NCBI GenBank assembly: GCA_041658625.1
Contig: JBAZZW010000002.1
Coordinates: 344,299-408,298, forward strand
Direction: 5' to 3'
From: Actinomycetota bacterium
Lineage (GTDB): Bacteria; Actinomycetota; JAHEXW01
DNA: 64,000 nt
In this document: positions 10,829 to 61,350 of the stretch, in pieces
Layout of the letters: the number at the start of each line of letters is the position of its first letter
Position numbering within the stretch: position 1 is the stretch's first letter
Position numbers and translations under genes: made by a program
The notes under the pieces: generated by a model
Told to the model about the DNA's origin: nothing
The model's input: only the letters and a program-made list of their open reading frames with translations
The model's database searches: none

Positions 10829-12169
10829 ATGGCGGAGAAGAAATCGGTAAAGAAAAAGTCAAGCGCAAATAAGAAATCAACCCCCACGGCCGCGGTTACC
10901 CCGCCGCGGGCGGAAGCGTCGGCCGCAACCTCGGCAACGGAGAGACACGGCTTCAGACGGTTCTTAGCCGGGACCTGCGTAGCAATCGCCTGCGTCATAA
11001 TCATTTTAAGTATCTACGCGGTCTTCCTGCAGCAAACAATACTCGACACCGAGCGATATACGGCGAACATGCGCGAGATAATCAAGGAACCGGCGGTTAA
11101 GAAAGCGGTCAGCGAATACGCCACCGACGAACTTTTCACGGCGCTCAAGGTTCAGAAAAGAATCAGCGACGTCCTGCCGGAAAAAATCAGGATCGTCGCC
11201 GTTCCCGCTACGACCTGGCTGAAAGGCTTTACCGAGCAGCAAATCGAGGCTCTGATGGAGACCAAACAGTTCCAGGACGTCTGGGTAAGCGTAAACGAAA
11301 CCGCCCATGAGAATATAGTGGCGGTCATCAGAGGCGAGACCAGGCAAGTGAAGATGACTTCCGACGGAACTGTTTACATAGATTTTATGCCTATCGTTAA
11401 GGATCTGGCGCTCAAGCTGACCGAGGACACAAGATTACACAGTCTGGTCAGTAAGATTCCGGAGGGGGCCGTCGGACCGGCCTTAAAAACAGCCTTGTCA
11501 ACCGCTGGGGTCGAACTGCCGGATGATTTCGGCCAGTTGAAAATCATGCAGGCCAAACAGCTGGTCAGGGCACGACAGATTGTCGCGGCGTTGGACGCCG
11601 CGGCGACATGGCTGCCGGTCGCGTCGCTTTTATTCGTCGGCCTGGCCATGGGAATATCGGTCGGGCGGCGGCGGACGGCGATGCAGCTTGGCGCGGGCGT
11701 TACGGCTGCCGCGGTCATCGGTACTTTGCTTTCCCAGATTGCCGTCGAGCAGGCCTTGCTGTCGATAGCCGACGACACGGTCCGGAATATGATGACCACG
11801 ATCGTTGAAATCGAGTTACGAGGACTACCTGAGTTGTTCTTGTACGCCGGTATAGCCGGAGCGGTCATTTGGGCGGTCGCGTTCCTGGCGGGCAAGAGGA
11901 TTTGGATTGAGAAAATGGACGCCTGGTGGAGGTCGAGGATCGGCTACGCGACGCCGGAAGATTTAGCCAAACACCCGCTTATTCGCTGGATCAACTTAAA
12001 CGTCAACATATTAAGGCTGGTTCTAGTTTTCACGGCGGTAATCGTCCTTCTGCTGATTAAAGGCTGGTGGGGCGTTGCCGCCTTCGGCATGATTCTGGCG
12101 GTCGGTGAAGCGAAACTGCGTTACCTGACGGGATGGTACTGGTTCAGCAAACCTGACGCCCGGGCTTGA
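10829..12169 (+). CDS. hypothetical membrane protein
   Basis: 446 aa. K/S/T-rich N-terminus, one N-terminal TM, a soluble middle domain and C-terminal TM bundle. No recognisable family. Confidence 0.5.
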   Translation: MAEKKSVKKKSSANKKSTPTAAVTPPRAEASAATSATERHGFRRFLAGTCVAIACVIIILSIYAVFLQQTILDTERYTANMREIIKEPAVKKAVSEYATDELFTALKVQKRISDVLPEKIRIVAVPATTWLKGFTEQQIEALMETKQFQDVWVSVNETAHENIVAVIRGETRQVKMTSDGTVYIDFMPIVKDLALKLTEDTRLHSLVSKIPEGAVGPALKTALSTAGVELPDDFGQLKIMQAKQLVRARQIVAALDAAATWLPVASLLFVGLAMGISVGRRRTAMQLGAGVTAAAVIGTLLSQIAVEQALLSIADDTVRNMMTTIVEIELRGLPELFLYAGIAGAVIWAVAFLAGKRIWIEKMDAWWRSRIGYATPEDLAKHPLIRWINLNVNILRLVLVFTAVIVLLLIKGWWGVAAFGMILAVGEAKLRYLTGWYWFSKPDARA

Positions 12170-20552: not shown

Positions 20553-20578
20553 TAAAGTTTCCTCGCAGTTGCCGATAA
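20553..20578 (+). promoter_or_regulatory. sigma-28 (FliA/SigD)-type promoter upstream of aroE and the pil operon
   Basis: TAAAGTTT-cctcgcagtt-GCCGATAA: both halves are exact matches to the enterobacterial FliA consensus (TAAAGTTT N11 GCCGATAA; Bacillus form TAAA N15 GCCGATAT) with a 10/14-nt spacer. It lies in the 143-nt gap between yqeG-like and aroE. Confidence 0.55.
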
Positions 20579-20676
20579 TATGCATAGGGTAAAATGCAAG
20601 CGTGCGCTTACTTACACGGCGTAGTCTTTGGGCGAAAGACAGGCGGACCGCGCTGCATAAGGAGGAACAGACTAAA

Positions 20677-21516
20677 GTGATTACCGGAACGACAAAAATA
20701 GTCGGTATTATCGGCGACCCGGTTGCCGGGTCGTTGTCTCCGCAAATGCACAACGCCGCTTTCTCCCACGACGGATTGGACTGGGTCTACGCCGCCTGGA
20801 AGGTATCGCAAGATGATCTGGCTGACGCGATCGCGGCGGTTAGGGCTCTAGGCATAGCAGGTTTAAACGTGACGATGCCCCACAAAGGACCGGTCATCAA
20901 GTATTTGGACAGCGTTGACGATGAAGCCTTGGCGATCGGGTCTGTCAACACCATCGTTAATACTCACGGTAGGCTTAAGGGTTACACAACAGACGGAGAG
21001 GGTTTCCGTCTTTCATTAAAAGACGCCGGATATGACCCAACCGGAAAAAAAGCAATCATAATAGGCGCAGGCGGGGCGGCCAGGGCGGTCGCCCGAAAGC
21101 TGGCCGAGAGACGGGCCGCGGTGGTCGACGTCGCCTGCCGGAATCAGGAAAGCGGGCGGAAGCTCGCGGATATCGTAAAGTCGGGCGGCGCGGAATCCAC
21201 TCAATATGACATCAATGAAGAAGCGGCGGCCCCGCTAAAGCGGGCCGATATGATCATAAACGCGACACCATTAGGCAAATACTCTTTAGACGACATAAAA
21301 TTCCTGGCGGACGGGCTCAATCCCGAACAATTCGTGGCCGACTTGAGCACCGTTCCTCCGCTCAGCGCATTCCTCGTCGCCGCCCAAGAACGAGGCTGCA
21401 CCGTCATGGGCGGTTTGGGCATGCTCGTCCGTCAGGGATCTTTATCTTATAAGCTGTGGACCGGCCTGGACGCGCCCTTGGACGTCATGCGCCGGGCGGT
21501 CGGTGAGGAAAAATGA
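20677..21516 (+). CDS. aroE: shikimate dehydrogenase
   Basis: IGDPVAGSLSP…NVTMPHK…GAGGAARA motifs. GTG 20677 after AAGGAGGA is the likely start (the track ORF begins at 20602). Confidence 0.9.
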   Translation: MITGTTKIVGIIGDPVAGSLSPQMHNAAFSHDGLDWVYAAWKVSQDDLADAIAAVRALGIAGLNVTMPHKGPVIKYLDSVDDEALAIGSVNTIVNTHGRLKGYTTDGEGFRLSLKDAGYDPTGKKAIIIGAGGAARAVARKLAERRAAVVDVACRNQESGRKLADIVKSGGAESTQYDINEEAAAPLKRADMIINATPLGKYSLDDIKFLADGLNPEQFVADLSTVPPLSAFLVAAQERGCTVMGGLGMLVRQGSLSYKLWTGLDAPLDVMRRAVGEEK

Positions 21517-23189
21517 GAGAAGGAAGGAAACAGCTCGGCGACCTGTTGGTCGAACGTGGCAAAATTACAGCCGAACAACTTGACGAGGCCTTGACCCGCC
21601 AGCGCGCCAATGGGGAACCGCTGGGGCAGATGCTGGTCGACTCCGGTTACATAACGGAAACGGACCTATTAAAGATGCTGGCCGAGCAGCTGGGGCTAGA
21701 TTTTGTCGACCTTACCGAATATAAGATCGACCTGTCGGCGGTCGCTATGCTGCCGCATAACGTCGCTAAGAAGAACCTGGTCCTGCCGGTGGGTTTCGAG
21801 GAGAACAAGCTGGTCGTAGCAACGGCCGACCCTACCAACGTGTTTATCTTCGACGACTTGAGGATTATGACTGGATTTGAGATAAAACCGGTTGTCGCCT
21901 CCAAGGAAGACCTTATCGGAGCGACCGAGCGTTTTGCCCAGAGCGAAGACGTTCTTGAGGAAGCGTCCAAGGGAGAGGAGACTTTTTCCGAAGCGCAGAC
22001 GGCGGCCAAGGAAGCGGAAGAAGCGGCCGAGGAAGCGCCGATCGTCAAGCTGGTTAACCTGATAATTAACCAGGCGGTCGAGGAACGGGCGTCGGATATT
22101 CATATAGAACCCCAGGAAGACGACATGAGGATCAGATATAGGGTGGACGGTGTTTTACACGAAGTCATGCGGAGTCCCAAGAAGATTCAAGCCGGTCTTA
22201 TATCAAGACTGAAGATCATGGCCGACATGAATATTGCCGAACGCCGGGTACCGCAAGACGGCCGGATCGGTCTGGTCGTCGGCGACCGCGCGGTTGATTT
22301 CCGGGTGGCCAGCCTGCCCAGCGTCTACGGAGAACAGATGGTTTTACGTATCCTGGAGAAGGAAAGCATCATGCTGGACCTGGAGGATCTGGGATTCTTC
22401 CCGGAAACGCTCGAGGTATTTCGCAAGGCCGTCGGCAAACCTTACGGAACGGTGCTGGTCACCGGTCCAACCGGCTCGGGCAAATCAACGACTCTATACG
22501 CCACTTTAAACGTCCTCAACGTGCCGGAGAAAAATATTATGACTATCGAGGACCCCGTTGAGTACCGCCTGTCGGGCATTAGCCAGATGCAGGTCAACCT
22601 GAAGGCGGGGATGACCTTCGCGGCCGGCTTAAGAGCGGTCTTGCGCGGCGACCCGGATTGCCTGCTCGTCGGCGAGATCCGGGACAGAGAGACCGCGCTG
22701 ATCGCCATAGAAAGCGCCTTAACCGGACATCTCGTTCTCTCGACGCTTCACACAAATGACGCTCCGTCAGCGGTGACCAGGCTAATTGAGATGGGCGTGG
22801 AACCGTTTCTGATAGCCTCGGCCTTGGATTGCGTGTTGGCCCAGCGGCTGGCCCGGCGTTTGTGTAAGTACTGCAAAGAAAAGCACGTTTTGACGGGCAA
22901 AGAGGTAAAGAACCTCGGTTTTCCCGCGGATGAAACTAAGAAATACGAGTTTTACAAACCGATCGGCTGTACCCGCTGCAACAACACCGGATATAAAGGC
23001 CGGATGGGCGTTCACGAGGTAATGTTAATGACGCCGACTGTCGGGGAGCTCGCCGTTAAGAAAGCGAGCTCGGATGAGCTTATGAGAAATGCTATCAAGG
23101 AAGGCATGAATACCCTGCGGCAAGACGGCTTCAACAAAGCTCTGGCTGGCATGACGTCGTTAGAAGAGGTTATTAGGGTGGTCGCTTAA
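21513..23189 (+). CDS. pilB: type IV pilus assembly ATPase PilB/GspE (copy 1) with N-terminal tandem MshEN motifs
   Basis: Walker A GPTGSGKST, Asp/His boxes, tetracysteine CKYC…CTRC. N-terminus KQLGDLLVERGKITAEQLDEALTRQ and PLGQMLVDSGYITETDLLKMLAEQ match the 24-residue MshEN c-di-GMP-binding motif. Confidence 0.9.
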   Translation: MREGRKQLGDLLVERGKITAEQLDEALTRQRANGEPLGQMLVDSGYITETDLLKMLAEQLGLDFVDLTEYKIDLSAVAMLPHNVAKKNLVLPVGFEENKLVVATADPTNVFIFDDLRIMTGFEIKPVVASKEDLIGATERFAQSEDVLEEASKGEETFSEAQTAAKEAEEAAEEAPIVKLVNLIINQAVEERASDIHIEPQEDDMRIRYRVDGVLHEVMRSPKKIQAGLISRLKIMADMNIAERRVPQDGRIGLVVGDRAVDFRVASLPSVYGEQMVLRILEKESIMLDLEDLGFFPETLEVFRKAVGKPYGTVLVTGPTGSGKSTTLYATLNVLNVPEKNIMTIEDPVEYRLSGISQMQVNLKAGMTFAAGLRAVLRGDPDCLLVGEIRDRETALIAIESALTGHLVLSTLHTNDAPSAVTRLIEMGVEPFLIASALDCVLAQRLARRLCKYCKEKHVLTGKEVKNLGFPADETKKYEFYKPIGCTRCNNTGYKGRMGVHEVMLMTPTVGELAVKKASSDELMRNAIKEGMNTLRQDGFNKALAGMTSLEEVIRVVA

Positions 23190-24869
23190 ATGAAGGAAAG
23201 CCGGAAACAATTGGGCGACTTGCTGGTCGCTCAAGGCGTAATCAAACAGGAGCAGTTGGACGAGGCCCTGAAGACGCAGAAGGAGAGCGGGGAGCCGCTC
23301 GGCCGCGTCTTGGTTAAGAGAGGGCTCGTCACCGAGGCCGACCTGTTAAGAATTCTGGCCAACCAGCTCGGTTTGGACTACGTTGACCTGAACGAATACA
23401 AGATCGATTTAAGCGCGGTGTCGCTGATTCCGGAAAGAATAGCCAAGAAAAATGTAGTCTTACCGATAGGATTCGAGGACGACAAGTTGATTGTGGCCGT
23501 AGCGAATCCGACGGACGTCTTTATTTTTGATGACCTAAGGATGATGACGGGATTCGAGGTCCGGCCGGTGGTCAGCACAAAAGAAGATATTCTGGCTTCA
23601 ATCAGTCGGTACGCCAGGGCGGACCAGCTGGTCGGCGAGGGGCTTGACGAGTTAACTCGCGAGGTGGCCGGCGAAGCCGAGGAAGAGGAATCTATCGCCG
23701 CGGCGATAGACGAAGCGCCGATCGTGAAACTGGCCAACTTGATTATCAACCAGGCCATAAACGATAGAGCCTCGGATATTCATATCGAACCGCAGGAGAA
23801 GGACGTTCGCGTCCGTTACCGCATAGACGGCGTTTTACACGAGATCATGACGCCGCCGAAGAGAGTTCAAGCCGGGTTGATTTCCCGCATCAAAATCATG
23901 TCGGACCTTAACATCGCGGAAAATCGCGTGCCGCAAGACGGCCGCATCGGCCTGAACGTTGCCGGGCGGGCTGTCGACTTACGGGTGGCGACGCTGCCGA
24001 CGGTTTACGGGGAAAAGATCGTCATGCGTATTCTGGAAAAGGAAAGCATCATGATCGACCTCAAAGACCTTGGTTTTTTACCTGACACCCTGGAGAGATA
24101 CCAGAGATCGTTTAAGAAACCGTACGGAGCCATCCTTATAACAGGACCGACCGGTTCCGGCAAAACGACGTCGCTGTACGCGGCGCTGAACGTGCTTAAC
24201 ACGATAGAGAAGAAGATCATTACGGTCGAGGACCCCGTGGAATACAAACTACCAGGCGTCATCCAGGTTCAAATCAACGCCAGGGTCGGCCTGACGTTCG
24301 CGGCCGCCCTAAGGTCTATATTACGCAACGACCCCGATATTGTAATGATCGGTGAGATACGGGATAGGGAGACAGCCCTGATCTCCGTTGAAAGCGCGCT
24401 GACGGGCCACCTGGTTTTAGCCACCCTGCATACCAATGACGCGCCGCAAGCCTTGACCAGGCTGACCGAGATGGGTATAGAACCATTCTTGTCAGCCTCG
24501 GCCGTCGATTGCGTCGTCGCTCAGCGATTGGCAAGAAAGCTCTGCAAATCCTGCAAAGAAGCTTATACGCCGGACGAGGAATCACTAAAGGCGGCGGGCT
24601 TTCCGTTCGAAAAAGGAGAGAAGCTGACATTTTATAAGGCGGTCGGTTGCGGAAAATGTAAGGGGAGCGGATACAAAGGGCGATTGGGGATTTATGAAGT
24701 AATGCTGGTCAGTGAGACGATTGAAAAGCTGTCGGTGGAACGGGCTTCGTCCGACGAAATCGGGCGACAGGCTGTCATAGAAGGCATGAGCACGTTGAAA
24801 GACGACGGTTATGAGAAAGTCAGGCAGGGGACGACAAGCTTGGAAGAGGTTCTGAGGGTCGTCGCGTAA
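23190..24869 (+). CDS. pilB: type IV pilus assembly ATPase PilB/GspE (copy 2, tandem paralog)
   Basis: 559 aa, collinear with copy 1 (~65% identity by eye). Walker A GPTGSGKTT, tetracysteine CKSC…CGKC, intact MshEN motifs (KQLGDLLVAQGVIKQEQLDEALKTQ). Confidence 0.9.
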   Translation: MKESRKQLGDLLVAQGVIKQEQLDEALKTQKESGEPLGRVLVKRGLVTEADLLRILANQLGLDYVDLNEYKIDLSAVSLIPERIAKKNVVLPIGFEDDKLIVAVANPTDVFIFDDLRMMTGFEVRPVVSTKEDILASISRYARADQLVGEGLDELTREVAGEAEEEESIAAAIDEAPIVKLANLIINQAINDRASDIHIEPQEKDVRVRYRIDGVLHEIMTPPKRVQAGLISRIKIMSDLNIAENRVPQDGRIGLNVAGRAVDLRVATLPTVYGEKIVMRILEKESIMIDLKDLGFLPDTLERYQRSFKKPYGAILITGPTGSGKTTSLYAALNVLNTIEKKIITVEDPVEYKLPGVIQVQINARVGLTFAAALRSILRNDPDIVMIGEIRDRETALISVESALTGHLVLATLHTNDAPQALTRLTEMGIEPFLSASAVDCVVAQRLARKLCKSCKEAYTPDEESLKAAGFPFEKGEKLTFYKAVGCGKCKGSGYKGRLGIYEVMLVSETIEKLSVERASSDEIGRQAVIEGMSTLKDDGYEKVRQGTTSLEEVLRVVA

Positions 24870-24914: not shown

Positions 24915-25970
24915 ATGCCGAAAATCGAAGAGTTGATGGAAACAGTCATGGCCAAGGACGCCTCCGACCTTCACCTCACGGCGGGTATCCCGCCAACCCT
25001 TCGGATCCATGGGAAGTTGGAACACATGGACAAACCCATCTTGGAACACGAAGACGTTATGGCTCTAGTCTACGAGATTCTCAACGACAGCCAGAGACGT
25101 CGTTTGGAGGCGGACCGCGAACTGGATTTGTCGTATGCTTACGAAGACAAGGCCCGATTCAGAATCAATGTTTACTGGCAGCGCGGCAACTTGGCCGCGG
25201 CGCTCCGTCTGATTCCGCCGGCGGTAAAGTCCCCGCGCGATCTGGGGTTGCCGCCGATCGTGGAGATGCTGGCCGCGAAACCTCGAGGTTTTATCTTGGT
25301 GACCGGGCCGACGGGCTGCGGCAAGTCGACCACGTTGGCGGCGATGATCAATATCATCAACCGGACCAGAAGCGAACACGTCCTGACCATTGAGGATCCG
25401 ATCGAGTTTATGCACAAACACGATAAGAGCATGGTCAATCAGCGGGAGGTTGGCGCCGATACCCATTCATTTTCCAGCGCGTTACGCCATGTACTTAGGC
25501 AGGACCCGGACGTTATTCTGGTCGGCGAGATGCGCGACCTGGAGACGATCTCCATCGCGCTGACGGCCGCGGAAACCGGCCACTTGGTTTTCGCCACCTT
25601 GCACACGCAGGACGCGCCTCAAAGCATCGAGCGTGTTATCGATGTTTTCCCGTCTCAACAGCAGCACCAGATTCGGATTCAGCTGGCCAGCACGCTGCAG
25701 GCGATTCTGGCCCAGCAATTGATTCCGGCCAAAGGAGGCGGCGAGAGAAAAGTCGCCGTCGAGGTCATGATGGCCACGCCGGCTATCAGAAACATGATCA
25801 GGGACGATAAGACACATCAGATAATCTCGGCCATGCAGGCGGGTTACAGCACAGGCATGCAGACCATGGATCAGGCGCTGGCAGCCCTCGTTAAAACGAA
25901 TCAGGTCACGTACGACGACGCTATGCAAAGGGCAATCGACCCTGACGTTTTCAAGAGACTGGTCGGGTAG
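24915..25970 (+). CDS. pilT: twitching-motility retraction ATPase PilT
   Basis: 351 aa with no N-terminal extension. GPTGCGKSTT, AIRNMIRD-type PilT signature. Confidence 0.9.
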   Translation: MPKIEELMETVMAKDASDLHLTAGIPPTLRIHGKLEHMDKPILEHEDVMALVYEILNDSQRRRLEADRELDLSYAYEDKARFRINVYWQRGNLAAALRLIPPAVKSPRDLGLPPIVEMLAAKPRGFILVTGPTGCGKSTTLAAMINIINRTRSEHVLTIEDPIEFMHKHDKSMVNQREVGADTHSFSSALRHVLRQDPDVILVGEMRDLETISIALTAAETGHLVFATLHTQDAPQSIERVIDVFPSQQQHQIRIQLASTLQAILAQQLIPAKGGGERKVAVEVMMATPAIRNMIRDDKTHQIISAMQAGYSTGMQTMDQALAALVKTNQVTYDDAMQRAIDPDVFKRLVG

Positions 25971-25980
25971 GTGGGAATAA

Positions 25981-27201
25981 ATGGCGACAACATTCGCGTA
26001 TAAGGGTCGCGACGCATCCGGGAAAACGATTTCCGGAACGCTGGAGGGAGATAACGAGACTCAGGTGGCGGAGAGCCTTCGCCGGATGGGTTACTTGGTT
26101 AACTCCATAACTGCCGAAAAGGGCGGCCTGCAGATGCAAATCGGCGGGGGCTCCAAGCGGAGGAAAAGGGTTAAGAGCGGCGAGCTGGTCGTATTCACGC
26201 GACAGTTCGCGACGATGATCAACGCGGGTTTGCCGTTAGCCCGCTGTCTGGGGGTAATGTCGCAGCAGTCGCCTAATCCGGGAATGGCCGCGACCATCGA
26301 AGACGTGCTGCACGACGTCGAAGGCGGTTTGGCGCTGTCGAACGCCATGGCCAAGCACCCCAAGGTTTTCAACACGCTTTACGTAAGCATGGTCAAAGCG
26401 GGTGAAACCGGCGGTATATTGGACGAGGTCCTAACCAATGTCGCCGAGAACCTGGAGAAGAACGAAGAGATTAAAAGCAAGATAAAATCGGCCATGGCTT
26501 ACCCGGTGTTGATGTTCATCATGTCGATCGTCCTGGTCATTGTCATGTTGGTGTTTATCGTACCGGTCTTTACGGGGATGTTCGCGCAGCTAGGCGGGGA
26601 GCTGCCGCTGCCGACGCAGATACTTGTTAACTTAAGCGCTCTAATCAGTTCAACCTGGTGGTTCGGCATCCCGTTGACCATCCTGGCGATTTACGGAATC
26701 AGGAAATCTTTAAGCATCCCGGCGGTCAGGTTCAAATGGGACACCGTTAAACTGAGGATTCCCATCGTCGGTCCGGTTGTCAAACAACAGTCGGTGTCGA
26801 GGTTCGCGAGAACACTGGGGACCTTATCCAGCGCCGGCGTACCGATCCTAGAGGCGCTGGACGTTGTGGAGAATACCGTCGGAAACGCTTTGATTTCATC
26901 AGAAGTGGCCAAGATAGCGCTGGGGGTAAAAGAGGGACAGACGATTGCCCAGCCCCTCGGTAAGATAAAGGTCTTTCCGCCTATGGTCGTGCAAATGGTC
27001 GCCGTTGGAGAAGAATCGGGCGCCATGGACACGATGCTTATCAAAGTGGCTGAGTTTTACGACAAGGAGGTTGCGACGACCATCGAAGGGCTATCGTCGA
27101 TTCTCGAGCCGGTCATGCTTATCGGCGTAGGTTTGGTTATCGGCGGCATCCTGATATCTCTATACCTGCCGATGTTCAAACTGGCCAGTTTGATTAAATA
27201 A
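25981..27201 (+). CDS. pilC: type IV pilus platform protein PilC/GspF
   Basis: 406 aa. Two T2SSF repeats, 3-4 TM. Confidence 0.9.
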   Translation: MATTFAYKGRDASGKTISGTLEGDNETQVAESLRRMGYLVNSITAEKGGLQMQIGGGSKRRKRVKSGELVVFTRQFATMINAGLPLARCLGVMSQQSPNPGMAATIEDVLHDVEGGLALSNAMAKHPKVFNTLYVSMVKAGETGGILDEVLTNVAENLEKNEEIKSKIKSAMAYPVLMFIMSIVLVIVMLVFIVPVFTGMFAQLGGELPLPTQILVNLSALISSTWWFGIPLTILAIYGIRKSLSIPAVRFKWDTVKLRIPIVGPVVKQQSVSRFARTLGTLSSAGVPILEALDVVENTVGNALISSEVAKIALGVKEGQTIAQPLGKIKVFPPMVVQMVAVGEESGAMDTMLIKVAEFYDKEVATTIEGLSSILEPVMLIGVGLVIGGILISLYLPMFKLASLIK

Positions 27202-27311: not shown

Positions 27312-27743
27312 ATGCTAACGAAAATCCGCAAGATGTCAAGGCGGGAAGAGGGCTTCACTCTGATCGAACTCATGGTCGTTATTCTTATCATAGGTATCCT
27401 CATGGCTATCGCCATCCCGTCTTTCATCGCTGTACGCAACAGAGGTTATGCGTCAACCGCGAAGGCGATCCGTTCAACAGCTGTCAAGACAATGGAGTTG
27501 TACGGAGTCGACAACAGCGGCGACTATTCTGGAGCGACGGCCCTCGCCTTAGGCGCGTTGGAGAAGAGCATTCCTTTCCTGAATGCGGCTCCCGCCGCCG
27601 GTGATTTCAAATCGGCCGGTATGTCCGGATTAGCCGCTGACGCGTACACCATCACGGTTAACGGCCGTGACGGAAACACTTACACGGCAGTCAAGGCTGC
27701 CGGCCTGGCTGTTGTCTATAACACGAACGGCGTACCTGAATAG
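27312..27743 (+). CDS. pilA: type IV major pilin (prepilin, class III signal peptide)
   Basis: MLTKIRKMSRREEG|FTLIELMVVILIIGIL: prepilin cleavage/N-methylation motif G|FTLIE plus a hydrophobic helix. ATG 27312 is preferred over track GTG 27303 because of GGAGGGAGG RBS spacing. Confidence 0.85.
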   Translation: MLTKIRKMSRREEGFTLIELMVVILIIGILMAIAIPSFIAVRNRGYASTAKAIRSTAVKTMELYGVDNSGDYSGATALALGALEKSIPFLNAAPAAGDFKSAGMSGLAADAYTITVNGRDGNTYTAVKAAGLAVVYNTNGVPE

Positions 27744-27769: not shown

Positions 27770-27812
27770 TAAAAAAAGAGGCGGCGCGGAAAAAACCGCG
27801 CCGCCTCTTTAG
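27770..27812. terminator. strong GC-rich hairpin terminator after pilA (bidirectional character)
   Basis: aaaaaaa-GAGGCGGCGCGG-aaaaaa-CCGCGCCGCCTC-ttt: 12-bp perfect stem. A-tract 5' and T-run 3'. Confidence 0.7.
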
Positions 27813-27914
27813 CTAAGCGGCGAAGGCGGCAGGCAGGCACGTGGTGAACCGAACCAACGGCGTGAACGAATAGAGCGGAAATATGCTTATAGGCTTATTT
27901 CTGTAAAGCCGGAT

Positions 27915-27922
27915 GCCGATAA
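27915..27922 (+). promoter_or_regulatory. GCCGATAA motif upstream of the minor-pilin genes
   Basis: Exact FliA -10-like 8-mer, 9 nt before the GTG of the FN3 pilin-like gene. No properly spaced TAAA -35. Confidence 0.25.
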
Positions 27923-27930
27923 TAGACTAG

Positions 27931-29019
27931 GTGAACACGATGAACCGTTTGAACAGCATACGCAATAATGAATCGGGTTTTACGTTAACCGAGATCATGG
28001 CCGCCTCGGCCATCATTACAATAGGCATTCTAGGTATTATGATCGTGTTCAACTCCACCTTAAACACGCAAACAAACACAAAGGTCAGAACCCTGGCGAC
28101 GAATATCGCGACCGAGAAAGTGGAAGCCGCCAGGACGATCGCGTACGATACGCTGACGCAAGAATACCTGGCGGCCAATCTCGGAACGACCGCCACAAAA
28201 GGCGGCGTAACGTTTACTATTACATATACTGTGGCGTTTGTTGACGATCCTTCGGACGGCACTGGCACAGGCGATTTAAATCCTAACGATTTTAAAAATG
28301 TGCAGATTACCGTGGCTTGGACGAACCCTCAGCCTTCGTCCTCGGTCGTTATAGATACATTGATTAATAAGAACCCGGTCGCGCCGGCTAGCGCCAGCAC
28401 CGACACGACCGCGCCGGTTTGGCCTAACGCGGGTGTAGGCGTTCTGTCCGGGCGCGCGGAACAGACAACGCCAGGGCTGGGTATGTATATCCAATGGTCG
28501 CCAAACTGGGCCACGGACGCCAACGGCGTCGTCGGCTATCTAATATACCGCCAGCCGCCGGACGACACGAGCTACATGCTTATCGCTACGGTTGCACCGA
28601 GCGTGGGTTGGTTCCTGGACAATTATTATACGGCGGGTGGCTCGTACAATTTTTATGTCAAGGCCTTCGACGGCGCGGGCAATTTGAGCGGACCGTGTAA
28701 TATTGTGACGATTGTCGGTCCGGCGGATACGATTGCGCCCAGTATCCCCCTCAATGTAACCGGACAGGCTACCAGCCCGACGACGGGGACATTAAGCTGG
28801 TCGTTGGCAACGGACAACTCGGGCGTGGTCGATCACTACAACATATACAGAACGCATTCAGGCAATCCTTTCGGGAACACGCCTTATACGTCGAAAAGTT
28901 CCCCGCCGTTTAACGATACCGGACTTAGCACAGGCATTACTTACCAGTATTATATTGCGGCCGTCGATCCGACCGGCAATGAGGGCGGCAAGTCCACAAC
29001 CGTATCAATAACTCCCTAG
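27931..29019 (+). CDS. pilin-like protein with N-terminal prepilin signal and two fibronectin-III-like domains
   Basis: MNTMNRLNSIRNNESG|FTLTEIMAASAIITIGILGIM prepilin N-terminus. C-terminal repeats (…WSPNWATDANGVVGYLIYRQ…YVKAFDGAGNLSGP… and …LSWSLATDNSGVVDHYNIYRT…YQYYIAAVDPTGNEGG…) look like FN3 folds. Confidence 0.7.
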   Translation: MNTMNRLNSIRNNESGFTLTEIMAASAIITIGILGIMIVFNSTLNTQTNTKVRTLATNIATEKVEAARTIAYDTLTQEYLAANLGTTATKGGVTFTITYTVAFVDDPSDGTGTGDLNPNDFKNVQITVAWTNPQPSSSVVIDTLINKNPVAPASASTDTTAPVWPNAGVGVLSGRAEQTTPGLGMYIQWSPNWATDANGVVGYLIYRQPPDDTSYMLIATVAPSVGWFLDNYYTAGGSYNFYVKAFDGAGNLSGPCNIVTIVGPADTIAPSIPLNVTGQATSPTTGTLSWSLATDNSGVVDHYNIYRTHSGNPFGNTPYTSKSSPPFNDTGLSTGITYQYYIAAVDPTGNEGGKSTTVSITP

Positions 29020-29032
29020 CGGGGAGGGTCCA

Positions 29033-29665
29033 ATGACATTCGGCAACAAGCACATCGGGAAAGCATATCGAGGAAAAGGACAAGCCGGTTACACGCTTCC
29101 GGAAGTGCTGGTTTCCGCGATCATCGGCGTGCTTCTCCTAACGGCCGTGTTCGGGATATTGCAGTCGGTGATGAGCAGTTATTACGTGCAAAACGCACAA
29201 GCCGAGGCGCAAGCCGAGGCGCAGTTCACGATGATGAGACTTGTCAAGGAAATCAGGCAAGCGGAGAAGCCGCTATTGGCTATATCCATAAATCCGGGCA
29301 GCGTTGAAACGCTGGCTTTTAAAGCGGATTTAAACAATGACGGAACGTCTGAAGCGATCCTTTACTCATATAACGGATACTTGCATAAGATTGTCAAACA
29401 AGTAAATACAACCGGAGTATATGATTTTACCGCTTCGCCGCAAGAGACGATAGCCTCGAATATCCGGAACAATTACAGCCAAACGCTCTTTACTTTTTAT
29501 GGAACCAGCCTGACAACGCCGCTTGATCCGACTAATCCGAGCGCCGATATTATTAATAAAACAAAACTAATAAAGATCAGAGTGGTAATCGACAAGGATG
29601 TGGCAAAACCGCCGGCGCCTATAGACTTGACGTCGGAAATCAAGCTACGCAATTTTGGCTACTAG
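29033..29665 (+). CDS. minor pilin / pseudopilin (PilW-like, prepilin N-terminus)
   Basis: …GKGQAG|YTLPEVLVSAIIGVLLLTAV class III signal motif. 210 aa. RBS GGGGAGGG. Confidence 0.65.
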   Translation: MTFGNKHIGKAYRGKGQAGYTLPEVLVSAIIGVLLLTAVFGILQSVMSSYYVQNAQAEAQAEAQFTMMRLVKEIRQAEKPLLAISINPGSVETLAFKADLNNDGTSEAILYSYNGYLHKIVKQVNTTGVYDFTASPQETIASNIRNNYSQTLFTFYGTSLTTPLDPTNPSADIINKTKLIKIRVVIDKDVAKPPAPIDLTSEIKLRNFGY

Positions 29666-29679
29666 ACTGGTGGTTTAAG

Positions 29680-31074
29680 ATGACACGCAAGAGAATTTTC
29701 AGTTTTGACGAGAAAGGTTCGGCCTTAATAGCGGCCATAGGCGTCATGATGGTACTGGACCTTTTCGCGGTCGCGGTGCTGGCCATTTCGGCAAGCCAAA
29801 TGACGTTGGCTACAACCGAAAGAAAGACAAACCAGGCATTCAATGTCGCCGAAGCGGGCTTTAACAATGCACTCTGGAAGATCGACAATATCGCCAACTA
29901 TGCTCCGGCTGAAAGCGCGCCTGATTACGGCTCCGTGTCAGGCGGCGATTATAAAATCGTCGTTACCGATGTCACAGGTACGACGAACCAGAAGAGGGTG
30001 GAAGTCACCGGCTACGTTCCGAATAGGTATCACTCCAATCCCGGAAGGCGAAAGATAGTGGCCATGGTTGAGGTGGCACCGAAGGTCTTAAGCTATGGCA
30101 TGTACGCATTTTCCTGGATCGACATCCAGGGGGCGACCGCCAGAACATATCTGGCGCCGCTGGATTATCGCGCCTCCGACGCCAAAGGCGGAGACATGGG
30201 CTCCAACTTTGATATCTTTTTCAACGACGCGGCCATAAGGTTGAATGAAAGAGGAACCCAGCAGGGCGAGCAAAATACTTATGACGCGCTTTTCGGCGTT
30301 CCGGCGGTGCCGATGGGAGATCTTATAACGGCGGGACCGACGGCCGAGGTCCACGCGGTAAATACGGTGGTAAATACGATCCAGGAGCTAAACGCCAAGT
30401 GCCAGTACGTCAAGATGGCCAGCATAAAACACATGAACCAGCCGATCACCTTCCCGACTTTGAATTTCGAGGGCGCCGGCGGCTACAGAGAAATGGCCCA
30501 GAACAACTTTACGAACGGTACAAAATATTGGGCGACCGAGCATTCCGGGTATTTCACCAAAGCGGATTTTACCGCCTTGTTCTCCGGCCGGAACAACGTC
30601 GAGCTGACGGGTATGATTTTTATCGACGGCGAAGTTGACCTTCCCAACAACAAGAACCTGACCATTACCAACGGCGGGCTGGTCATCAAGGACGATCCCA
30701 ATGACCCCAGTCAGGCGCTGTCGCTCGCCAATCGAGCGTCGCTTATAGTCAGACACTCGTCCGAAGCGAGCAAGGTCTTTCCCGGCTTGATCGTCTTCAC
30801 GACCGTGGGGAGCACGGCGTCCGTCGTTGATAGGGGAACGATGGAGATTGAAGGACTAGTATACTCAGAGAGAACTTATAGCGAATCCAACTCGACAGTG
30901 CGCATTAAAGGAGCCCTGCTGGCCAGCGGTACTTCTGCGGCGGCCAGTATAGTTAACATGAATGCCAGCATTATCATCCAGTATGACCCGAACGTCACGA
31001 ACATGTTAGGCTTAAAAACATTCGGCGACGTATTCGTAAAAAAGGTGACGAGCTGGCGCGAGGTTACGCCATAG
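29680..31074 (+). CDS. PilX-like pilus assembly protein (PilX N-terminal domain) with large C-terminal domain
   Basis: N-terminus GSALIAAIGVMMVLDLFAVAVLAISASQMTLATTERKTNQAFNVAEAGFNNALWKI matches the PilX_N family signature. 464 aa. Confidence 0.65.
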   Translation: MTRKRIFSFDEKGSALIAAIGVMMVLDLFAVAVLAISASQMTLATTERKTNQAFNVAEAGFNNALWKIDNIANYAPAESAPDYGSVSGGDYKIVVTDVTGTTNQKRVEVTGYVPNRYHSNPGRRKIVAMVEVAPKVLSYGMYAFSWIDIQGATARTYLAPLDYRASDAKGGDMGSNFDIFFNDAAIRLNERGTQQGEQNTYDALFGVPAVPMGDLITAGPTAEVHAVNTVVNTIQELNAKCQYVKMASIKHMNQPITFPTLNFEGAGGYREMAQNNFTNGTKYWATEHSGYFTKADFTALFSGRNNVELTGMIFIDGEVDLPNNKNLTITNGGLVIKDDPNDPSQALSLANRASLIVRHSSEASKVFPGLIVFTTVGSTASVVDRGTMEIEGLVYSERTYSESNSTVRIKGALLASGTSAAASIVNMNASIIIQYDPNVTNMLGLKTFGDVFVKKVTSWREVTP

Positions 31075-31536: not shown

Positions 31537-34029
31537 ATGAAAGCGGTCATCATGGCCGGCGGAGAAGGCACCCGCTTACGGCCGCTCACCAGCAACCAAC
31601 CTAAACCCATGGTACCGGTATTGAACAAGCCGGTCATGGAGTATATTATCGAACTTCTTAAGAAACATGGCGTGACGGATATCGTCGCGACGCTGCAGTT
31701 TCTGCCTGCCATCATCAGGAACTATTTCGGCGACGGCAAAGACCTGGGCGTGGATCTTGCTTATAGCACCGAAGAAACGCCTCTAGGCACGGCAGGCAGC
31801 GTTAAGAAAGTCGAGGACTATCTCGACGAAACCTTCATTGTCATCTCGGGCGACGCGGTCACCAATGTCGATCTGACGGAAGCCGTCGCTTTCCACAAGG
31901 CCAACAAATCGGTCGCCACGTTGATATTGAAAAGCGTTGAGAATCCGCTCCAGTTCGGCGTGGTTATCACCGACGAAAGCGGCCGAATCCAAAGGTTTGT
32001 GGAGAAACCGAATTGGAGCCAGGTCTTCAGCGACACAGTCAACACAGGCATATACATCCTGGAGCCGAATGTCCTGAAGATGATTCCCGCCAATAAACCT
32101 TTCGACTTCAGCAAGGATCTGTTTCCGAAACTCTTAAAGGCCAAGAAGAGGATGTTCGGCTATGTTACCGAAGCTTACTGGCAGGACATCGGGAGCATAG
32201 AGCAATATATGCAGGTCCACCACGACATCCTCAAGCGGGAGACGGGCATCGAGCCGGAAGGGTTCAAGATCGGGCGCAGTATATGGGTCAACGGAGGAGC
32301 CAAGGTCGATCCTCTGGCTAAGATGAGGGGGCCGATCGTCATCGGCCGGAACGCAAAGGTTGAAGCGGGCGCCCGTCTAAATCCATACACGGTTATCGGC
32401 AATAACACGGTCGTCAAAGCCGGCTCTCTGGTCAGCCGGTCGGTAGTTTGGGAGAACTGCTATATCGGAGCGGGGGCCGAGCTTAGGGGCTGCACGATCG
32501 GCCGAACCTGCGATATTAAGAATAACGCCAGACTGGGGGAGGGCGTAGCCGTCGGTGACAACTGCACCATCGGCGAAAACGCCGTCATCAGCCCGAATGT
32601 GAGGATCTACCCGTTCAAAACGGTCGAAGCGGGGGCCGGCATCAGCAGCTCGATCATCTGGGAAACCAGGGGATTCAGGACTTTGTTCGGCCGGCAGGGA
32701 ATAGCGGGCTTAATCAATATCGACATCACGCCAAGGCTGGCGATGCGGATCGCCGTGTCGTATGGCACTGCTTTGCCCGCCGGGGCGACGGTCGCGGTCA
32801 GCTGCGACAACATCAGAGCCTGTGAAATCATGAAGAACAGCATTATCGCCGGTTTGAATTCAACCGGCGTTAACGTCTGGGACATGGATAACGGGCCTTC
32901 GGGAGCTAATCGCTACGCGATTATTGGCGACCATCTGGCCGGAGGCGTCGACATCCGCCTGATGCACGACGACATCCAGTCCGTGGAGATGGATTTCTTC
33001 GACTCCAACGGCATCAACATAGGCGAAGACATGCAAAGCGCCATTGAGAAATACTTTTACCGGGGCGATTTCAGACGGGCTTTTTACGATGAAATGGGCG
33101 AGGTTATCTTCCCTGTTCGGGCGACAGAAACCTATATCAACAACATTTTAGAACATGCTGACCTGGGCTTAATCGGGAGATCAAGACTTAAACTAGTCGT
33201 GGATTACGGATTTGGCCGGGGCATAAAAGTCGGACCGGACATCCTGGCCAGGCTAGGGCTGGCCGTCATCTCGCTAAACGGCATTCCCGGCAGCGATCGG
33301 TCGGCCATGACTAAAGACGACATGGAGAGGGCTTTGCGGCAGGTATCGACCAGCGTCCGCGCCTTAAAGGCCGATCTAGGCGTATTGATTGACGGGCCGA
33401 GCGAACGAATCACCCTGGTGGACGAGAAGGGTCAGCGCATAAACCATTCGGTTGCCCTAATGATGATGCTTAAGATGGTCTGCGCTAAAGCGAAACAGGG
33501 GACCGTAGTTTTGCCGATGAGCGTGACTCAAATAGCAGACGATATCGTCGCGGTAAGCGGATGCGATGTTAAAAGGGTCGGCATCAGCTCGGCGGCGCTA
33601 ATGGAAGCCGCTCTGGAAGAACACGCGATTTTTGCCGGCGCCGAAGGCGGAGGCTATATATTTCCGGAGATTGTTCCCGCCTATGCCGCCTTACCAAGCT
33701 TGGTAAAGTTGCTGGAAATTATGGCCGGATCCAAGAAACCGCTCAGCCAGCTGGCCGGATCTGTTCCCAGGTATCACGTGCTGCACCGGACAGAGGTATG
33801 CGCCTGGGATCGCAAAGGCTACGTCATGCGGCAGTTAATCGATTCGATCAAAGGGAAGAAGGTCGAGCTGATAGACGGCATAAAGGTTTATAGTCCCCGC
33901 GGTTGGGCGTTGATGCTGCCGGATCCCGTCGACCCGGTCTGCCACATCTACGTGGAAGGCGACACCGAGCAGCGCGCGGAGGCGCTAGCCGCTAAATACG
34001 CCGCGTTGATCAGAAAATTCAGGTCTTGA
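31537..34029 (+). CDS. fusion protein: sugar-1-phosphate nucleotidyltransferase + left-handed beta-helix + phosphomannomutase/phosphoglucomutase-like domains
   Basis: N-terminus MKAVIMAGGEGTRLRPLT (NTP-transferase G-x-G-T-R-L), hexapeptide-repeat middle, C-terminal alpha-D-phosphohexomutase-like region. 830 aa. Confidence 0.8.
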   Translation: MKAVIMAGGEGTRLRPLTSNQPKPMVPVLNKPVMEYIIELLKKHGVTDIVATLQFLPAIIRNYFGDGKDLGVDLAYSTEETPLGTAGSVKKVEDYLDETFIVISGDAVTNVDLTEAVAFHKANKSVATLILKSVENPLQFGVVITDESGRIQRFVEKPNWSQVFSDTVNTGIYILEPNVLKMIPANKPFDFSKDLFPKLLKAKKRMFGYVTEAYWQDIGSIEQYMQVHHDILKRETGIEPEGFKIGRSIWVNGGAKVDPLAKMRGPIVIGRNAKVEAGARLNPYTVIGNNTVVKAGSLVSRSVVWENCYIGAGAELRGCTIGRTCDIKNNARLGEGVAVGDNCTIGENAVISPNVRIYPFKTVEAGAGISSSIIWETRGFRTLFGRQGIAGLINIDITPRLAMRIAVSYGTALPAGATVAVSCDNIRACEIMKNSIIAGLNSTGVNVWDMDNGPSGANRYAIIGDHLAGGVDIRLMHDDIQSVEMDFFDSNGINIGEDMQSAIEKYFYRGDFRRAFYDEMGEVIFPVRATETYINNILEHADLGLIGRSRLKLVVDYGFGRGIKVGPDILARLGLAVISLNGIPGSDRSAMTKDDMERALRQVSTSVRALKADLGVLIDGPSERITLVDEKGQRINHSVALMMMLKMVCAKAKQGTVVLPMSVTQIADDIVAVSGCDVKRVGISSAALMEAALEEHAIFAGAEGGGYIFPEIVPAYAALPSLVKLLEIMAGSKKPLSQLAGSVPRYHVLHRTEVCAWDRKGYVMRQLIDSIKGKKVELIDGIKVYSPRGWALMLPDPVDPVCHIYVEGDTEQRAEALAAKYAALIRKFRS

Positions 34030-34035
34030 GAACAG

Positions 34036-35439
34036 ATGATTAAATTCGGCACCGACGGCTGGCGCGATGTTGTCGCCGACGGTTTCACTATTACAAATCT
34101 GAGGCTGGTTACGCGCGGCATATCGGCTTATATAAAGACAAGCGCCGTCGAGCCGCGGCTGGTCGTCGGGTACGACTGCCGGTTCATGGGACGGGAGTTC
34201 GCCGCCGCCGTGGCGGATGAAATGTCGGTCAACGGCGTCAGCGTGATACTCGGTAACGAGGCTTATCCCACGCCAACCGTCGCTTATTCGGCGAAAGCGC
34301 TCGGAGCAGACGGGGCGATTATGCTTACGGCCAGTCATAATCCCTATTATTACAACGGACTTAAGTTCATTCCCGAGTACGCCGGACCGGCGACGGAGGA
34401 GATTACCACCGCCATAGAGGAGGCGATAACTTCAGTCGAGGGCCGCGCCAACCTCGAAGCAAGCGGCCGCCAGGCCACCGCGTCGATAGAGAATAAAGAT
34501 TTAAGCACTGATTATATGAAGGCCTTGGTCGACTACCTGGACATTGACACGATTGCCGGGAGCGGATTAAAGACCGCCATAGATCCTTATCACGGGTCAG
34601 GGCGCAGGCTGATGCCGGAGCTCGCCCGGACGGCCGGATTGGACGCCACGGTCATCAGAGACAATGAAGATCCGCTCTTCGGGGACACCATGCCTGATCC
34701 GTCAGAGAAAAACCTGGGCGAGCTGAGAGAGCTTGTGGTCGGCAAGAAACTGGATGTCGGCCTGGCGCTGGACGGCGACGCCGACCGTTTTGGGATAATC
34801 GCCGACGACGGGTCATACCTGACACCGAACCAGGTGGTCGCGTTGCTCCTCGGGCACATGGTAAGAAACCGGGGCGCGGCCGGAATCGTCGTCAGGACCG
34901 TAGCGACGACGCATCTGCTAGACGCCATGTCGGCCAAGATGGGGCTAAAGATTGTGGAAACCCCTGTAGGATTCAAGCACGTTGGACTGTTGATGAGAGA
35001 GGAGAAGGTGATAATCGGCGGGGAAGAGAGCGGGGGCTTAAGCGTGCTCGGACATATTCCCGAAAAGGACGGCTTGCTGGCGGACATGCTTGTCGTCGAG
35101 ATGATAGCTAAAGAATCAAAACCGCTGTCAACCATCTGGAAAGACCTGGTTGACGAGTTCGGACACTACTATAACGAAAGGCTGGATATACCATATCCGT
35201 CCGATAAGATAAAAATACTTTTTGATTCTTTGAAGGATAAGACGCCGGACAAAATCGGCGGCCTGAAAGTAGAGAGGATTGAGACAATCGACGGCGTCAA
35301 ATTGATCTTAGCCGGTAACGCTTGGCTGCTGATACGACCTTCCGGCACAGAGCCGCTTGTCAGAGCATACATAGAAACCAAGTCAGCCGGCGACATGCAA
35401 GCGCTGAAAACCGCGGCCAGGGAATTGTTATCGGCATGA
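34036..35439 (+). CDS. phosphomannomutase/phosphoglucomutase (alpha-D-phosphohexomutase)
   Basis: Active-site TASHNP, Mg loop DGDADR, sugar-binding GEESGG. 467 aa. Confidence 0.88.
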   Translation: MIKFGTDGWRDVVADGFTITNLRLVTRGISAYIKTSAVEPRLVVGYDCRFMGREFAAAVADEMSVNGVSVILGNEAYPTPTVAYSAKALGADGAIMLTASHNPYYYNGLKFIPEYAGPATEEITTAIEEAITSVEGRANLEASGRQATASIENKDLSTDYMKALVDYLDIDTIAGSGLKTAIDPYHGSGRRLMPELARTAGLDATVIRDNEDPLFGDTMPDPSEKNLGELRELVVGKKLDVGLALDGDADRFGIIADDGSYLTPNQVVALLLGHMVRNRGAAGIVVRTVATTHLLDAMSAKMGLKIVETPVGFKHVGLLMREEKVIIGGEESGGLSVLGHIPEKDGLLADMLVVEMIAKESKPLSTIWKDLVDEFGHYYNERLDIPYPSDKIKILFDSLKDKTPDKIGGLKVERIETIDGVKLILAGNAWLLIRPSGTEPLVRAYIETKSAGDMQALKTAARELLSA

Positions 35440-48233: not shown

Positions 48234-48947
48234 TTGGCTAACAAAAGAGACAAAGCGCTCTTGGAGCTGCAGGAAATTGACTCAACACTGGATAGGCTGA
48301 AGAAAGATCTGGAAACAATGCCGGAGAAGCAGGAACTGGCCGAGATAGAGTCTCAGCTTCAGGCGTCGCGGGATGAACTGGCCGAAGCCGAAAAATCGGT
48401 AGTGGATGTCGAACACAGCCAGAAAAAACGGGAAGACGAGTCGACGCGCTTCGAAGACAAAATAAAGAATGAAGAGAAAAAACTGTACGCGGGGACGGTA
48501 ACGAATCCGAAGGAGCTTATGTCGCTACAACAGGAGATAAAGGTCTTGTCGGACGAGAAGGACACAGTCGACACGGAGTACTTGATCGGCCTTGACGAGT
48601 TGTCGGAAGCCCAAGGCCTGGAAGCCGGGTTGAAAAACGATTTACGCGACAGGGAAGAAAAAGCCAAAACACTGGCCGAAACAATCAGTAAGAAAAGCCG
48701 CGAGCTCAAGGAAGCTATTGCCGGCTTAGCGGAAAAAAGAGATGCTGCGCTAAAAGACATTGATGAAATGACGCTGAAGACATACGAGCAGATGAGAGTC
48801 AAGGGTCACGGGAAAGCAGTCGCGATCGCGGCGGAAGGGGTTTGCGGGGGCTGCAACCTTGAGAACTCGGAAGACAGCGGACACGGTCCCAGCGGCGGTC
48901 CAGTAAGGCGGTGCGAATATTGCCACAGAATACTGATTTCGAAATAA
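48234..48947 (+). CDS. COG1579 zinc-ribbon/coiled-coil protein (Rv2229c-like)
   Basis: Long coiled coil then C4 zinc ribbon CGGCNL…CEYCHRIL. Sits immediately upstream of the RNase H gene, as in the mycobacterial Rv2229c-Rv2228c pair. Confidence 0.8.
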   Translation: MANKRDKALLELQEIDSTLDRLKKDLETMPEKQELAEIESQLQASRDELAEAEKSVVDVEHSQKKREDESTRFEDKIKNEEKKLYAGTVTNPKELMSLQQEIKVLSDEKDTVDTEYLIGLDELSEAQGLEAGLKNDLRDREEKAKTLAETISKKSRELKEAIAGLAEKRDAALKDIDEMTLKTYEQMRVKGHGKAVAIAAEGVCGGCNLENSEDSGHGPSGGPVRRCEYCHRILISK

Positions 48948-61302: not shown

Positions 61303-61316
61303 AAAAGCATTGGTTT

Positions 61317-61324
61317 GCCGATAA
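61317..61324 (+). promoter_or_regulatory. GCCGATAA motif upstream of the GT2 gene
   Basis: Exact 8-mer 27 nt before ATG 61351. Confidence 0.25.
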
Positions 61325-61350
61325 ACCCTTCGATAAAGGATAATCAGAGC

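Follow-up and report, generated by a model that had tools for sequence, protein, structure and literature searches.

A predicted modular type IV minor pilin with two C-terminal fibronectin type III domains from an uncultured Actinomycetota bacterium

A stretch of 64,000 nt from an Actinomycetota metagenome-assembled genome (MAG; GenBank assembly GCA_041658625.1, contig JBAZZW010000002.1, positions 344,299 to 408,298; hereafter the window, in whose own numbering positions are given) was found to carry a type IV pilus operon in which the major pilin gene is followed on the plus strand by a gene for a second, much longer pilin. This gene very probably runs from 27940 to 29019 with an ATG start and encodes 359 amino acids (aa). 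Its product was assigned with high confidence to the modular minor pilins, as a protein of the PilV/GspI/ComGE or "I" class that bears two fibronectin type III (FN3) domains. The fuller statement, in which this I-class pilin also displays its FN3 pair as an effector, is the favoured reading and is held with moderate confidence. FN3-bearing modular minor pilins have been catalogued before, and this protein, a new and uncharacterised example of them, will be called the FN3 pilin. Its parts are as follows.

27940 to 27978, plus strand: class III (prepilin) leader peptide MNRLNSIRNNESG with the G-1 cleavage site at its end (Pfam and TIGR profiles, family alignment)
27979 to 28371, plus strand: mature pilin module, probably of the PilV/GspI/ComGE ("I") class, with F+1...E+5, alpha1 helix, four-stranded sheet and acidic loop VDDPSDGTGTGDLNPNDFK (structure model, profiles)
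28372 to 28401, plus strand: Pro/Ala/Ser-rich linker, residues 148-157 (model confidence, pLDDT, <50 at residues 148-155)
28402 to 28722, plus strand: FN3 domain 1 (FN3-1), residues about 158-264, the best conserved part of the protein (model strands, Foldseek, conservation)
28723 to 29019, plus strand: FN3 domain 2 (FN3-2), residues about 265-362, plus the stop codon, where the protein terminates (Pfam fn3, pLDDT about 90-96)

The open reading frame (ORF) given in a preliminary description of this DNA (27931-29019, plus strand, 362 aa counted from a GTG codon) was recovered with its end and strand as described. Its start was moved 9 nt downstream to the ATG at 27940, because the GTG at 27931 sits within the ribosome-binding site AGGTGA (27929-27934), 5 nt upstream of that ATG. 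All orthologues likewise begin with the resulting residues MNRLNS, as does an identical public entry, MFA5867637.1, which comes from a 611,753-bp contig and is titled [quoted passage not shown]. The leader is 13 residues long, and cleavage is predicted between MNRLNSIRNNESG and FTLTEIMAASAIITIGILGIMIV. The N terminus scored 25.5 bits against Pfam N_methyl (cutoff 21.2) and 18.9 bits against TIGR02532 (cutoff 16.3), and Gly-1, Phe+1 and Glu+5 were without variation in the family members with a complete N terminus (14/14), so that the class III prepilin N terminus proposed earlier was borne out. The sequence features expected of the class III signal of a type IV pilin (IPR012902/PF07963) were present, namely a short, positively charged leader, Gly-1, Phe+1, Glu+5 and a hydrophobic stretch of ~20 residues.

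Six related loci were compared with the window: L001, from a Deep Mine Microbial Observatory Actinomycetota MAG and encoding a protein 48% identical to the FN3 pilin; L081, L082 and L083, encoding proteins 43-61% identical to it; and L079 and L080, which are copies from the same organism as the window. Pilus machinery genes adjoin the FN3 pilin gene, with pilB, pilB, pilT, pilC and the major pilin gene just upstream in the window and likewise in L001, L081 and L082. The N-terminal motif and the domain layout of the FN3 pilin are no chance pattern.

Behind the leader, the pilin module gave a weak but full-length match to TIGR02523 (PilV; 27 bits, E=5e-6, residues 15-142; below the curated cutoff of 52.2) and a sub-cutoff match to GspI (19.1 bits, E=1.4e-3), and the class models TIGR01707 and NF041013 were matched directly or via relatives. 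A profile of residues 1-147, built from 11 orthologues (alignment A2), was searched against 1.84 billion representative proteins and gave 14,372 matches at E<=1e-3 and 1,021 representatives at E<=1e-10; most of the listed matches spanned nearly the whole module. Among the top 97 relatives so found, the PilV profile matched 67 (best E=1e-12), ComGE 38, GspI 12, GspH 8 and GspJ 5. PilV, GspI and ComGE occupy a single position ("I") in the conserved H-I-J-K set of minor pilins (PMC9934059). Since PilV, ComGE and GspI matches dominate among the relatives and the weak PilV match is full-length, the module is best placed, as a likely assignment, in the I class; it passes no curated equivalog cutoff, and its fold is taken from the model alone. 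The gene order I-J-K, with a K subunit lacking Glu5, was found in all loci examined.

A structure model was computed with AlphaFold (AF2) from a 15-sequence family alignment (A1) and reached a predicted local distance difference test (pLDDT) score of 80.2, replacing a single-sequence run (pLDDT 43). The head of the protein was modelled as a helix (residues 19-68), a short helix (77-84) and antiparallel strands (87-90, 93-104, 121-130 and 137-146) at pLDDT about 80-90; in this model only, the pilin lollipop fold of an extended alpha1 on an antiparallel sheet is seen. The acidic loop VDDPSDGTGTGDLNPNDFK (28225-28300, residues about 99-123 of the 362-aa ORF), where the model confidence is reduced to about 65-72, was nearly invariant as DDPxDGxGxxDxxPxDYK, followed by VxVSW, across the 97 distant pilin-module relatives, and could be a metal (Ca2+) site.

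The rest of the protein was modelled as two seven-stranded sandwiches (about 160-262 and 270-360) at pLDDT about 85-96, while the predicted template modelling score (pTM) of the whole model was 0.51. In a Foldseek search of the PDB they matched contactins, titin and integrin beta4, all of them tandem FN3 structures, with probability 1.00 and E from 4e-11 to 1e-8, and both units thus have the seven-stranded beta-sandwich of an FN3 domain. Pfam fn3 (PF00041) called FN3-2 at residues 273-358 with 35.4 bits (cutoff 25). FN3-1 received no Pfam fn3 call of its own and was recognised by its similarity to FN3-2 (34% identity, E=1e-7), by the model, by Foldseek and by alignment of residues 154-361 with the tandem FN3 region of the CbhB exoglucanase model (E=3e-18). 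The claim of two FN3 domains is upheld by these results, and the W...YxIYR...YxYxVxAxD motifs on which it had been founded occur in both repeats; the structure prediction proposed at that time as a check for Ig/FN3-like folds is the one given here. The FN3 part had been put at ~300 aa: the fusion stands, and its size is about 205 aa, after a pilin module of about 130 residues.

FN3-1 was the better conserved of the pair, with 63% mean pairwise identity and 25/107 columns invariant, while FN3-2 (48%) and the alpha1 helix were the least conserved regions. The nearest non-pilin relatives of the pair were FN3 repeats in large extracellular multidomain proteins, some labelled chitodextrinase or YD-repeat protein. 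The FN3 pair thus appears to have come from a general pool of extracellular domains, and these relatives point to no specific ligand. A reading of the domains as a carbohydrate-binding module was rejected: they matched generic FN3 regions only, and no lectin or carbohydrate-binding module family was matched.

Pilin modules of this kind usually carry something else. The top 148 pilin-module representatives had a median length of about 480 aa, as against about 140 aa for the module alone. Extra domains among the top 97 relatives were CarboxypepD_reg (30), Pfam fn3 (15), Big_1 (11) and SpaA (9), with RGI_lyase, Big_7 and other beta-sandwich or beta-helix domains besides, and hidden Markov models built from the FN3 domains of this family found an FN3-like domain in 47/148 of the top representatives, mostly at the extreme C terminus. 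This swapping of beta-sandwich modules on one pilin module is a "carrier plus effector" pattern. Full-length relatives close to the FN3 pilin formed 15 clusters at 90% identity among 5.8 billion, and a GTDB scan of 185,579 species-representative genomes found one, that of L001; the other loci of that scan were discarded as FN3-only matches in unrelated proteins. Where close relatives had a named source organism, it was an Actinomycetota MAG (3/3). Close full-length relatives are therefore few, but the design itself is not rare.

Modular pilins were defined by Raynaud et al. 2021 (PNAS, PMC8179133), with >1,200 proteins in 264 architectures, and FN3 (IPR003961) is one of the 15 commonest extra modules listed there, "with no clear function"; Dataset S1 of that study holds 12 proteins of the IPR012902-IPR003961 architecture and 66 of IPR012902-PF13620 (InterPro at that time). 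A modular pilin joins the IPR012902 motif to at least one domain that is not pilus-specific, and the FN3 pilin has N_methyl and fn3 in one polypeptide. It shares with the published set the plan of a pilin module, a short linker and a domain foreign to pilus biology. The published FN3 entry is a bare database count, whereas the present protein has two FN3 copies and a carrier assigned to the I class, with an I-J-K gene order that is conserved in Actinomycetota MAGs. The earlier statement that this architecture is not among the described minor pilins was an overstatement, given that catalogue and the FN3-like domains in 47/148 relatives. Literature searches found no experimental characterisation of an FN3-bearing pilin, and no study of the minor pilins of PilT-type pili in Actinomycetota.

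The FN3 pilin gene lies within a plus-strand series of alaS, yceG, a HAD-family hydrolase gene, aroE, pilB, pilB, pilT, pilC, the major pilin gene, a hairpin, the FN3 pilin gene, the genes of a J-like and a K-like pilin, and a HIT-family gene. The pilus features in this series are as follows.

21513 to 24869, plus strand: two PilB-type assembly ATPase genes in tandem (21513-23189 and 23190-24869), both encoding an MshEN N-domain and a T2SSE domain (Pfam T2SSE E=5.6e-142 each)
24915 to 25970, plus strand: PilT-type retraction ATPase, 351 aa, with a T2SSE domain and 77% identical to the L001 orthologue
25981 to 27201, plus strand: PilC platform protein (Pfam T2SSF in two stretches, E=1.2e-65)
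27312 to 27743, plus strand: major pilin, 143 aa, leader MLTKIRKMSRREEG followed by FTLIELM (N_methyl 37.2 bits; NCBI MFA5867636.1)
27775 to 27810, plus strand: 15-bp GC-rich hairpin 3' of the major pilin gene, a likely terminator or attenuator (z=-4.95)
27913 to 27921, plus strand: ATGCCGATA motif, a candidate -10-like promoter or regulatory element (alignment A6, invariant in 5 loci)
29033 to 29665, plus strand: J-class (PilW/GspJ/ComGF-like) minor pilin, 210 aa, leader ...GQAG followed by YTLPE, Glu5 kept (ComGF E=4.8e-5, GspJ E=1.7e-4, N_methyl 21.1 bits)
29680 to 31074, plus strand: K-class (PilX/GspK-like) large minor pilin, 464 aa, ...EKG followed by SALIA, without Glu5 and with a C-terminal DUF7305-like region (PilX_N E=8.8e-3, DUF7305 E=1e-3)

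The two pilin-like genes that had been noted downstream of the FN3 pilin gene (PilW-like at 29033-29665 and PilX_N at 29680-31074) are present as described, and the order of the three-gene minor-pilin module was kept in every related locus examined, as major pilin(s), FN3 pilin, J-like pilin (about 205 aa) and K-like pilin (about 470 aa). L001 and L081 have a second major-pilin paralogue between the hairpin and the FN3 pilin gene. The presence or absence of Glu5 is a hallmark that separates J from K subunits, and in alignments A3 and A4 this residue was always present in the J-like orthologues and never in the K-like orthologues. The J-like pilin, which also weakly matches HpsC, is named at NCBI as a prepilin-type N-terminal cleavage/methylation domain-containing protein, and the K-like protein as a pilus assembly PilX N-terminal domain-containing protein. 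Of the three minor pilins, the K-like protein is the best conserved (70% mean column identity, 4 orthologues; 58% identity to L001, versus 48% and 45% for the other two). Its C-terminal region of ~300 aa had a sub-threshold DUF7305 match (E=1.4e-5 in the L001 orthologue) and no PDB sequence relative, and short repeats rich in I/V-x-G/N suggest that this region may be beta-helix-like. PDB sequence searches with the J-like and K-like profiles gave weak N-terminal pilin-helix matches or nothing.

The major pilin partially matched PilA, GspG and ComGC models. The presence of PilT argues for a retractile pilus over a Com or secretion pseudopilus. The tandem pair of PilB-type paralogues is kept in L001 and L082; MshEN-type domains bind cyclic di-GMP in other systems. 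In L001 and L083 the genes pilM, pilN and pilO directly follow the K-like gene, with aroC after them in L001, while the window cluster continues at that point into the HIT-family gene and sugar-nucleotide genes. Because these genes replace pilM, pilN and pilO, the pilus cluster of this genome is split or rearranged. Pfam scans of most large ORFs and tblastn with L001 proteins found no pilQ/secretin gene and no aroC (chorismate synthase) gene in the 64-kb window, and the lack of a secretin agrees with a machine of monoderm type.

The hairpin has a perfect 15-bp stem and lies 31 nt past the major-pilin stop codon. It had been described as the major pilin terminator: a strong hairpin is indeed present, but it is not a textbook intrinsic terminator, as its plus-strand tail is only UUU, and a terminator pattern scan flagged the minus strand only, where there is a long T-run. 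Each of the other four loci has a hairpin of equal strength (z -5.0 to -7.4) after its first pilin gene (L001 about 7336-7367, L081 about 4047-4076, L082 about 9897-9940 and L083 about 678-709), conserved in place and not in sequence. This strength and conserved position, rather than a canonical U-tail, support a role for the hairpin as a putative terminator or attenuator that would separate the abundant major-pilin transcripts from those of the minor pilins.

Between the hairpin and the FN3-pilin start lies the 9-nt motif ATGCCGATA, which was unchanged in five diverged loci at 17-35 nt upstream of the FN3-pilin start codon (window 27913-27921, L001 7963-7971, L081 4580-4588, L082 9973-9981 and L083 749-757), within spacers that are otherwise unconserved. 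The form TGCCGATAA(T) also occurs upstream of aroE, at the head of the pilus operon (window 20570, L082 2708), and upstream of pilM in L001; the longer forms TTGCCGATAAT or TTTGCCGATAA stand upstream of aroE (window 20569-20579, L082 2707-2717), of pilM (L001 11393-11402) and of a GT2 glycosyltransferase gene (window 61315-61325). The motif looks like a candidate -10-like promoter or regulator site, which would give the minor-pilin genes their own transcription start.

A mechanism was drawn up by analogy with established knowledge of type IV filaments, from which the processing, tip location, binding and ligand of the FN3 pilin are all proposed; the H-I-J-K priming complex and tip-to-base growth are reviewed in PMC9934059. 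In this scheme, a prepilin peptidase encoded outside the window would remove the leader after Gly-1 and methylate Phe+1, the I-class module would pair with the J-like pilin in the membrane, and the Glu5-less K-like pilin would join them. The I-J-K complex would then prime filament assembly on PilC, driven by the PilB ATPases, and, as pili grow from tip to base, would come to lie at the pilus tip. In that position the two FN3 domains would extend outward on a flexible linker of about 10 residues. An FN3 domain is usually 3.5-4 nm long, which would give the pair a reach of roughly 7-8 nm. The chain has no further domain after FN3-2, which argues that the pair itself is the displayed element and no spacer. 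Its most likely target would be a surface, polymer or partner protein, on which retraction by PilT would then pull. From the conservation pattern, the proximal FN3-1 may dock on the tip complex and leave the variable, distal FN3-2 as the exposed contact surface. The tip-adhesin role suggested in the preliminary description is plausible from the architecture and from the precedent of Streptococcus sanguinis; the carbohydrate-binding role suggested alongside it is inferred from the architecture only.

In S. sanguinis, two modular pilins, PilB with a vWA module and PilC with a lectin module, act as adhesins and share a tip complex with the GspI-like PilA (PMC8179133, PMC9934059), and the three minor pilins have been proposed as a filament cap (PMC9934059). 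Both that system and the present one have a monoderm type IV pilus with PilT, effector modules set on pilin modules, and one subunit without Glu5. They differ in that the GspI-like PilA of S. sanguinis is small, non-modular and without Glu5, whereas the I-class subunit described here is modular and keeps Glu5; in that the vWA and lectin modules are on PilB and PilC, whereas the two FN3 domains are on the I-class subunit; and in that the Glu5-less subunit here is a large PilX-like protein. No similarity at the sequence level was seen between the S. sanguinis and window systems. With the PilV/GspI/ComGE "I" subunit (GspIJK complex, Korotkov and Hol 2008, as cited in PMC9934059) the FN3 pilin shares a small head behind a long alpha1, a gene directly upstream of the J-like and K-like genes, and the matches to TIGR02523, TIGR01707 and NF041013 (direct and via relatives). 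It differs from that subunit in scores under the equivalog cutoffs, in about 205 extra C-terminal residues, in the acidic loop peculiar to its family and in having no H-class partner in the window. CofB of enterotoxigenic Escherichia coli and TcpB of Vibrio cholerae likewise consist of a pilin module, a linker and then beta-sandwich or beta-repeat domains, and their C-terminal domains are displayed at the pilus tip and engage a partner (PMC8179133); these, however, are trimers of diderm type IVb systems, and their extra domains are not FN3.

Several observations weigh against an I-class pilin with a displayed FN3 effector. FN3 domains of bacterial enzymes are often mere spacers, and no ligand-binding site, lectin motif or known carbohydrate-binding module was found in the FN3 pilin. 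The Pfam and tblastn searches described above found no prepilin peptidase (A24/PilD), PilM, PilN or PilO gene in the window. The PilV, GspI, ComGF, GspJ and PilX_N matches all fell under the curated family cutoffs, and PDB sequence searches with the pilin-module profile gave nothing beyond weak matches to N-terminal pilin helices. The source organism is known only as a MAG, and the expression, processing and piliation of the FN3 pilin are predicted from genes alone. In the sole characterised monoderm system, moreover, the I-like subunit (PilA) is the non-modular one (PMC9934059).

It is possible, though rather unlikely, that the FN3 pair is structural and not adhesive, either packing on the K-like or J-like protein to form a composite tip or serving as a rigid extension, and that binding is done by the K-like C-terminal domain. 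A fixed protein-protein interface would fit the conservation of FN3-1, the best conserved region of the protein; the K-like protein, the most conserved of the three, has the C-terminal region of about 300 aa with its DUF7305 match; and the model that the pair matched best was the FN3 linker region of CbhB, such domains being commonly linkers in the glycoside hydrolases of bacteria. The protein terminates with FN3-2, however, so that there is no further domain to space out; the linker between the head and FN3-1 is predicted to be flexible and the pTM of 0.51 suggests no fixed arrangement; and relatives that swap many beta-sandwich modules on the same pilin module are a better fit to interchangeable effectors. 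A reading in which the filament is a short Com or type II secretion pseudopilus, used for DNA uptake or protein export, with the FN3 pilin simply a member of its priming complex, was judged improbable. The best of the weak minor-pilin matches were indeed to ComGE, ComGF, GspI and GspJ models, and the window has no H-class pilin and lacks PilM, PilN and PilO. Yet the operon holds a PilT retraction ATPase and two PilB paralogues, PilM, PilN and PilO adjoin the same module in L001 and L083, scans of the window found no comEA, comEC or secretin-type genes, and the 143-aa major pilin also matches PilA models. Most improbable of all would be an unprocessed, unpolymerised surface protein anchored in the membrane, with the hydrophobic helix acting as signal anchor for two FN3 domains. 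The NCBI label, which reads only "fibronectin type III domain-containing protein", and the want of a prepilin peptidase gene in the window would agree with such a protein; the invariance of G-1, F+1 and E+5 across the family, the homology of the entire 130-residue module to PilV/ComGE-class pilins, and the gene's fixed place, after the major pilin and ahead of the J/K-like pilins in all loci examined, speak against it.

Modular pilins with grafted effector domains partly explain how simple pilus filaments perform many functions, and the modules studied in depth so far are the vWA and lectin modules only, both from one streptococcus. The locus described here is a clean, conserved case of an FN3 pair on the I-class subunit of a priming complex, from uncultured Actinomycetota, and it shows that the I-class carrier family is very large and usually modular. 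It is a reasonable candidate for testing the roles of FN3 domains on pili and leaves current concepts unchanged. In textbook systems the role of tip effector lies with J or K pilins or with PilY1. It is conceivable, and for the present doubtful, that the I-class nucleator pilin is the main carrier of pilus-tip effectors in a very large, mostly unstudied group of bacteria, with C-terminal FN3 as a specific binding or adaptor domain; this was considered because of the 1,021 representatives, the median of ~480 aa against a module of ~140 aa, and the FN3-like domains in 47/148. If that were true, FN3 could bind a polysaccharide, a mineral surface or a secreted partner, and a new mode of pilus-mediated attachment in subsurface Actinomycetota would follow.

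Three other regions of the window were noted. Directly downstream of the pilus cluster, at 31537-35439, lie a gene for an 830-aa fusion of a nucleotidyl-transferase (NTP_transferase/hexapeptide) with a phosphoglucomutase/phosphomannomutase (PGM/PMM), and then a second, stand-alone PGM/PMM gene. A 446-aa ORF at 10829-12169, amid housekeeping genes, had no Pfam match at E<=1e-4. At 48911-50170, a 419-aa ORF encodes an RNase H/RVT_3-like domain fused to an S-adenosylmethionine (SAM) hydroxide adenosyltransferase (SAM_HAT_N, SAM_HAT_C), which is an unusual fusion.

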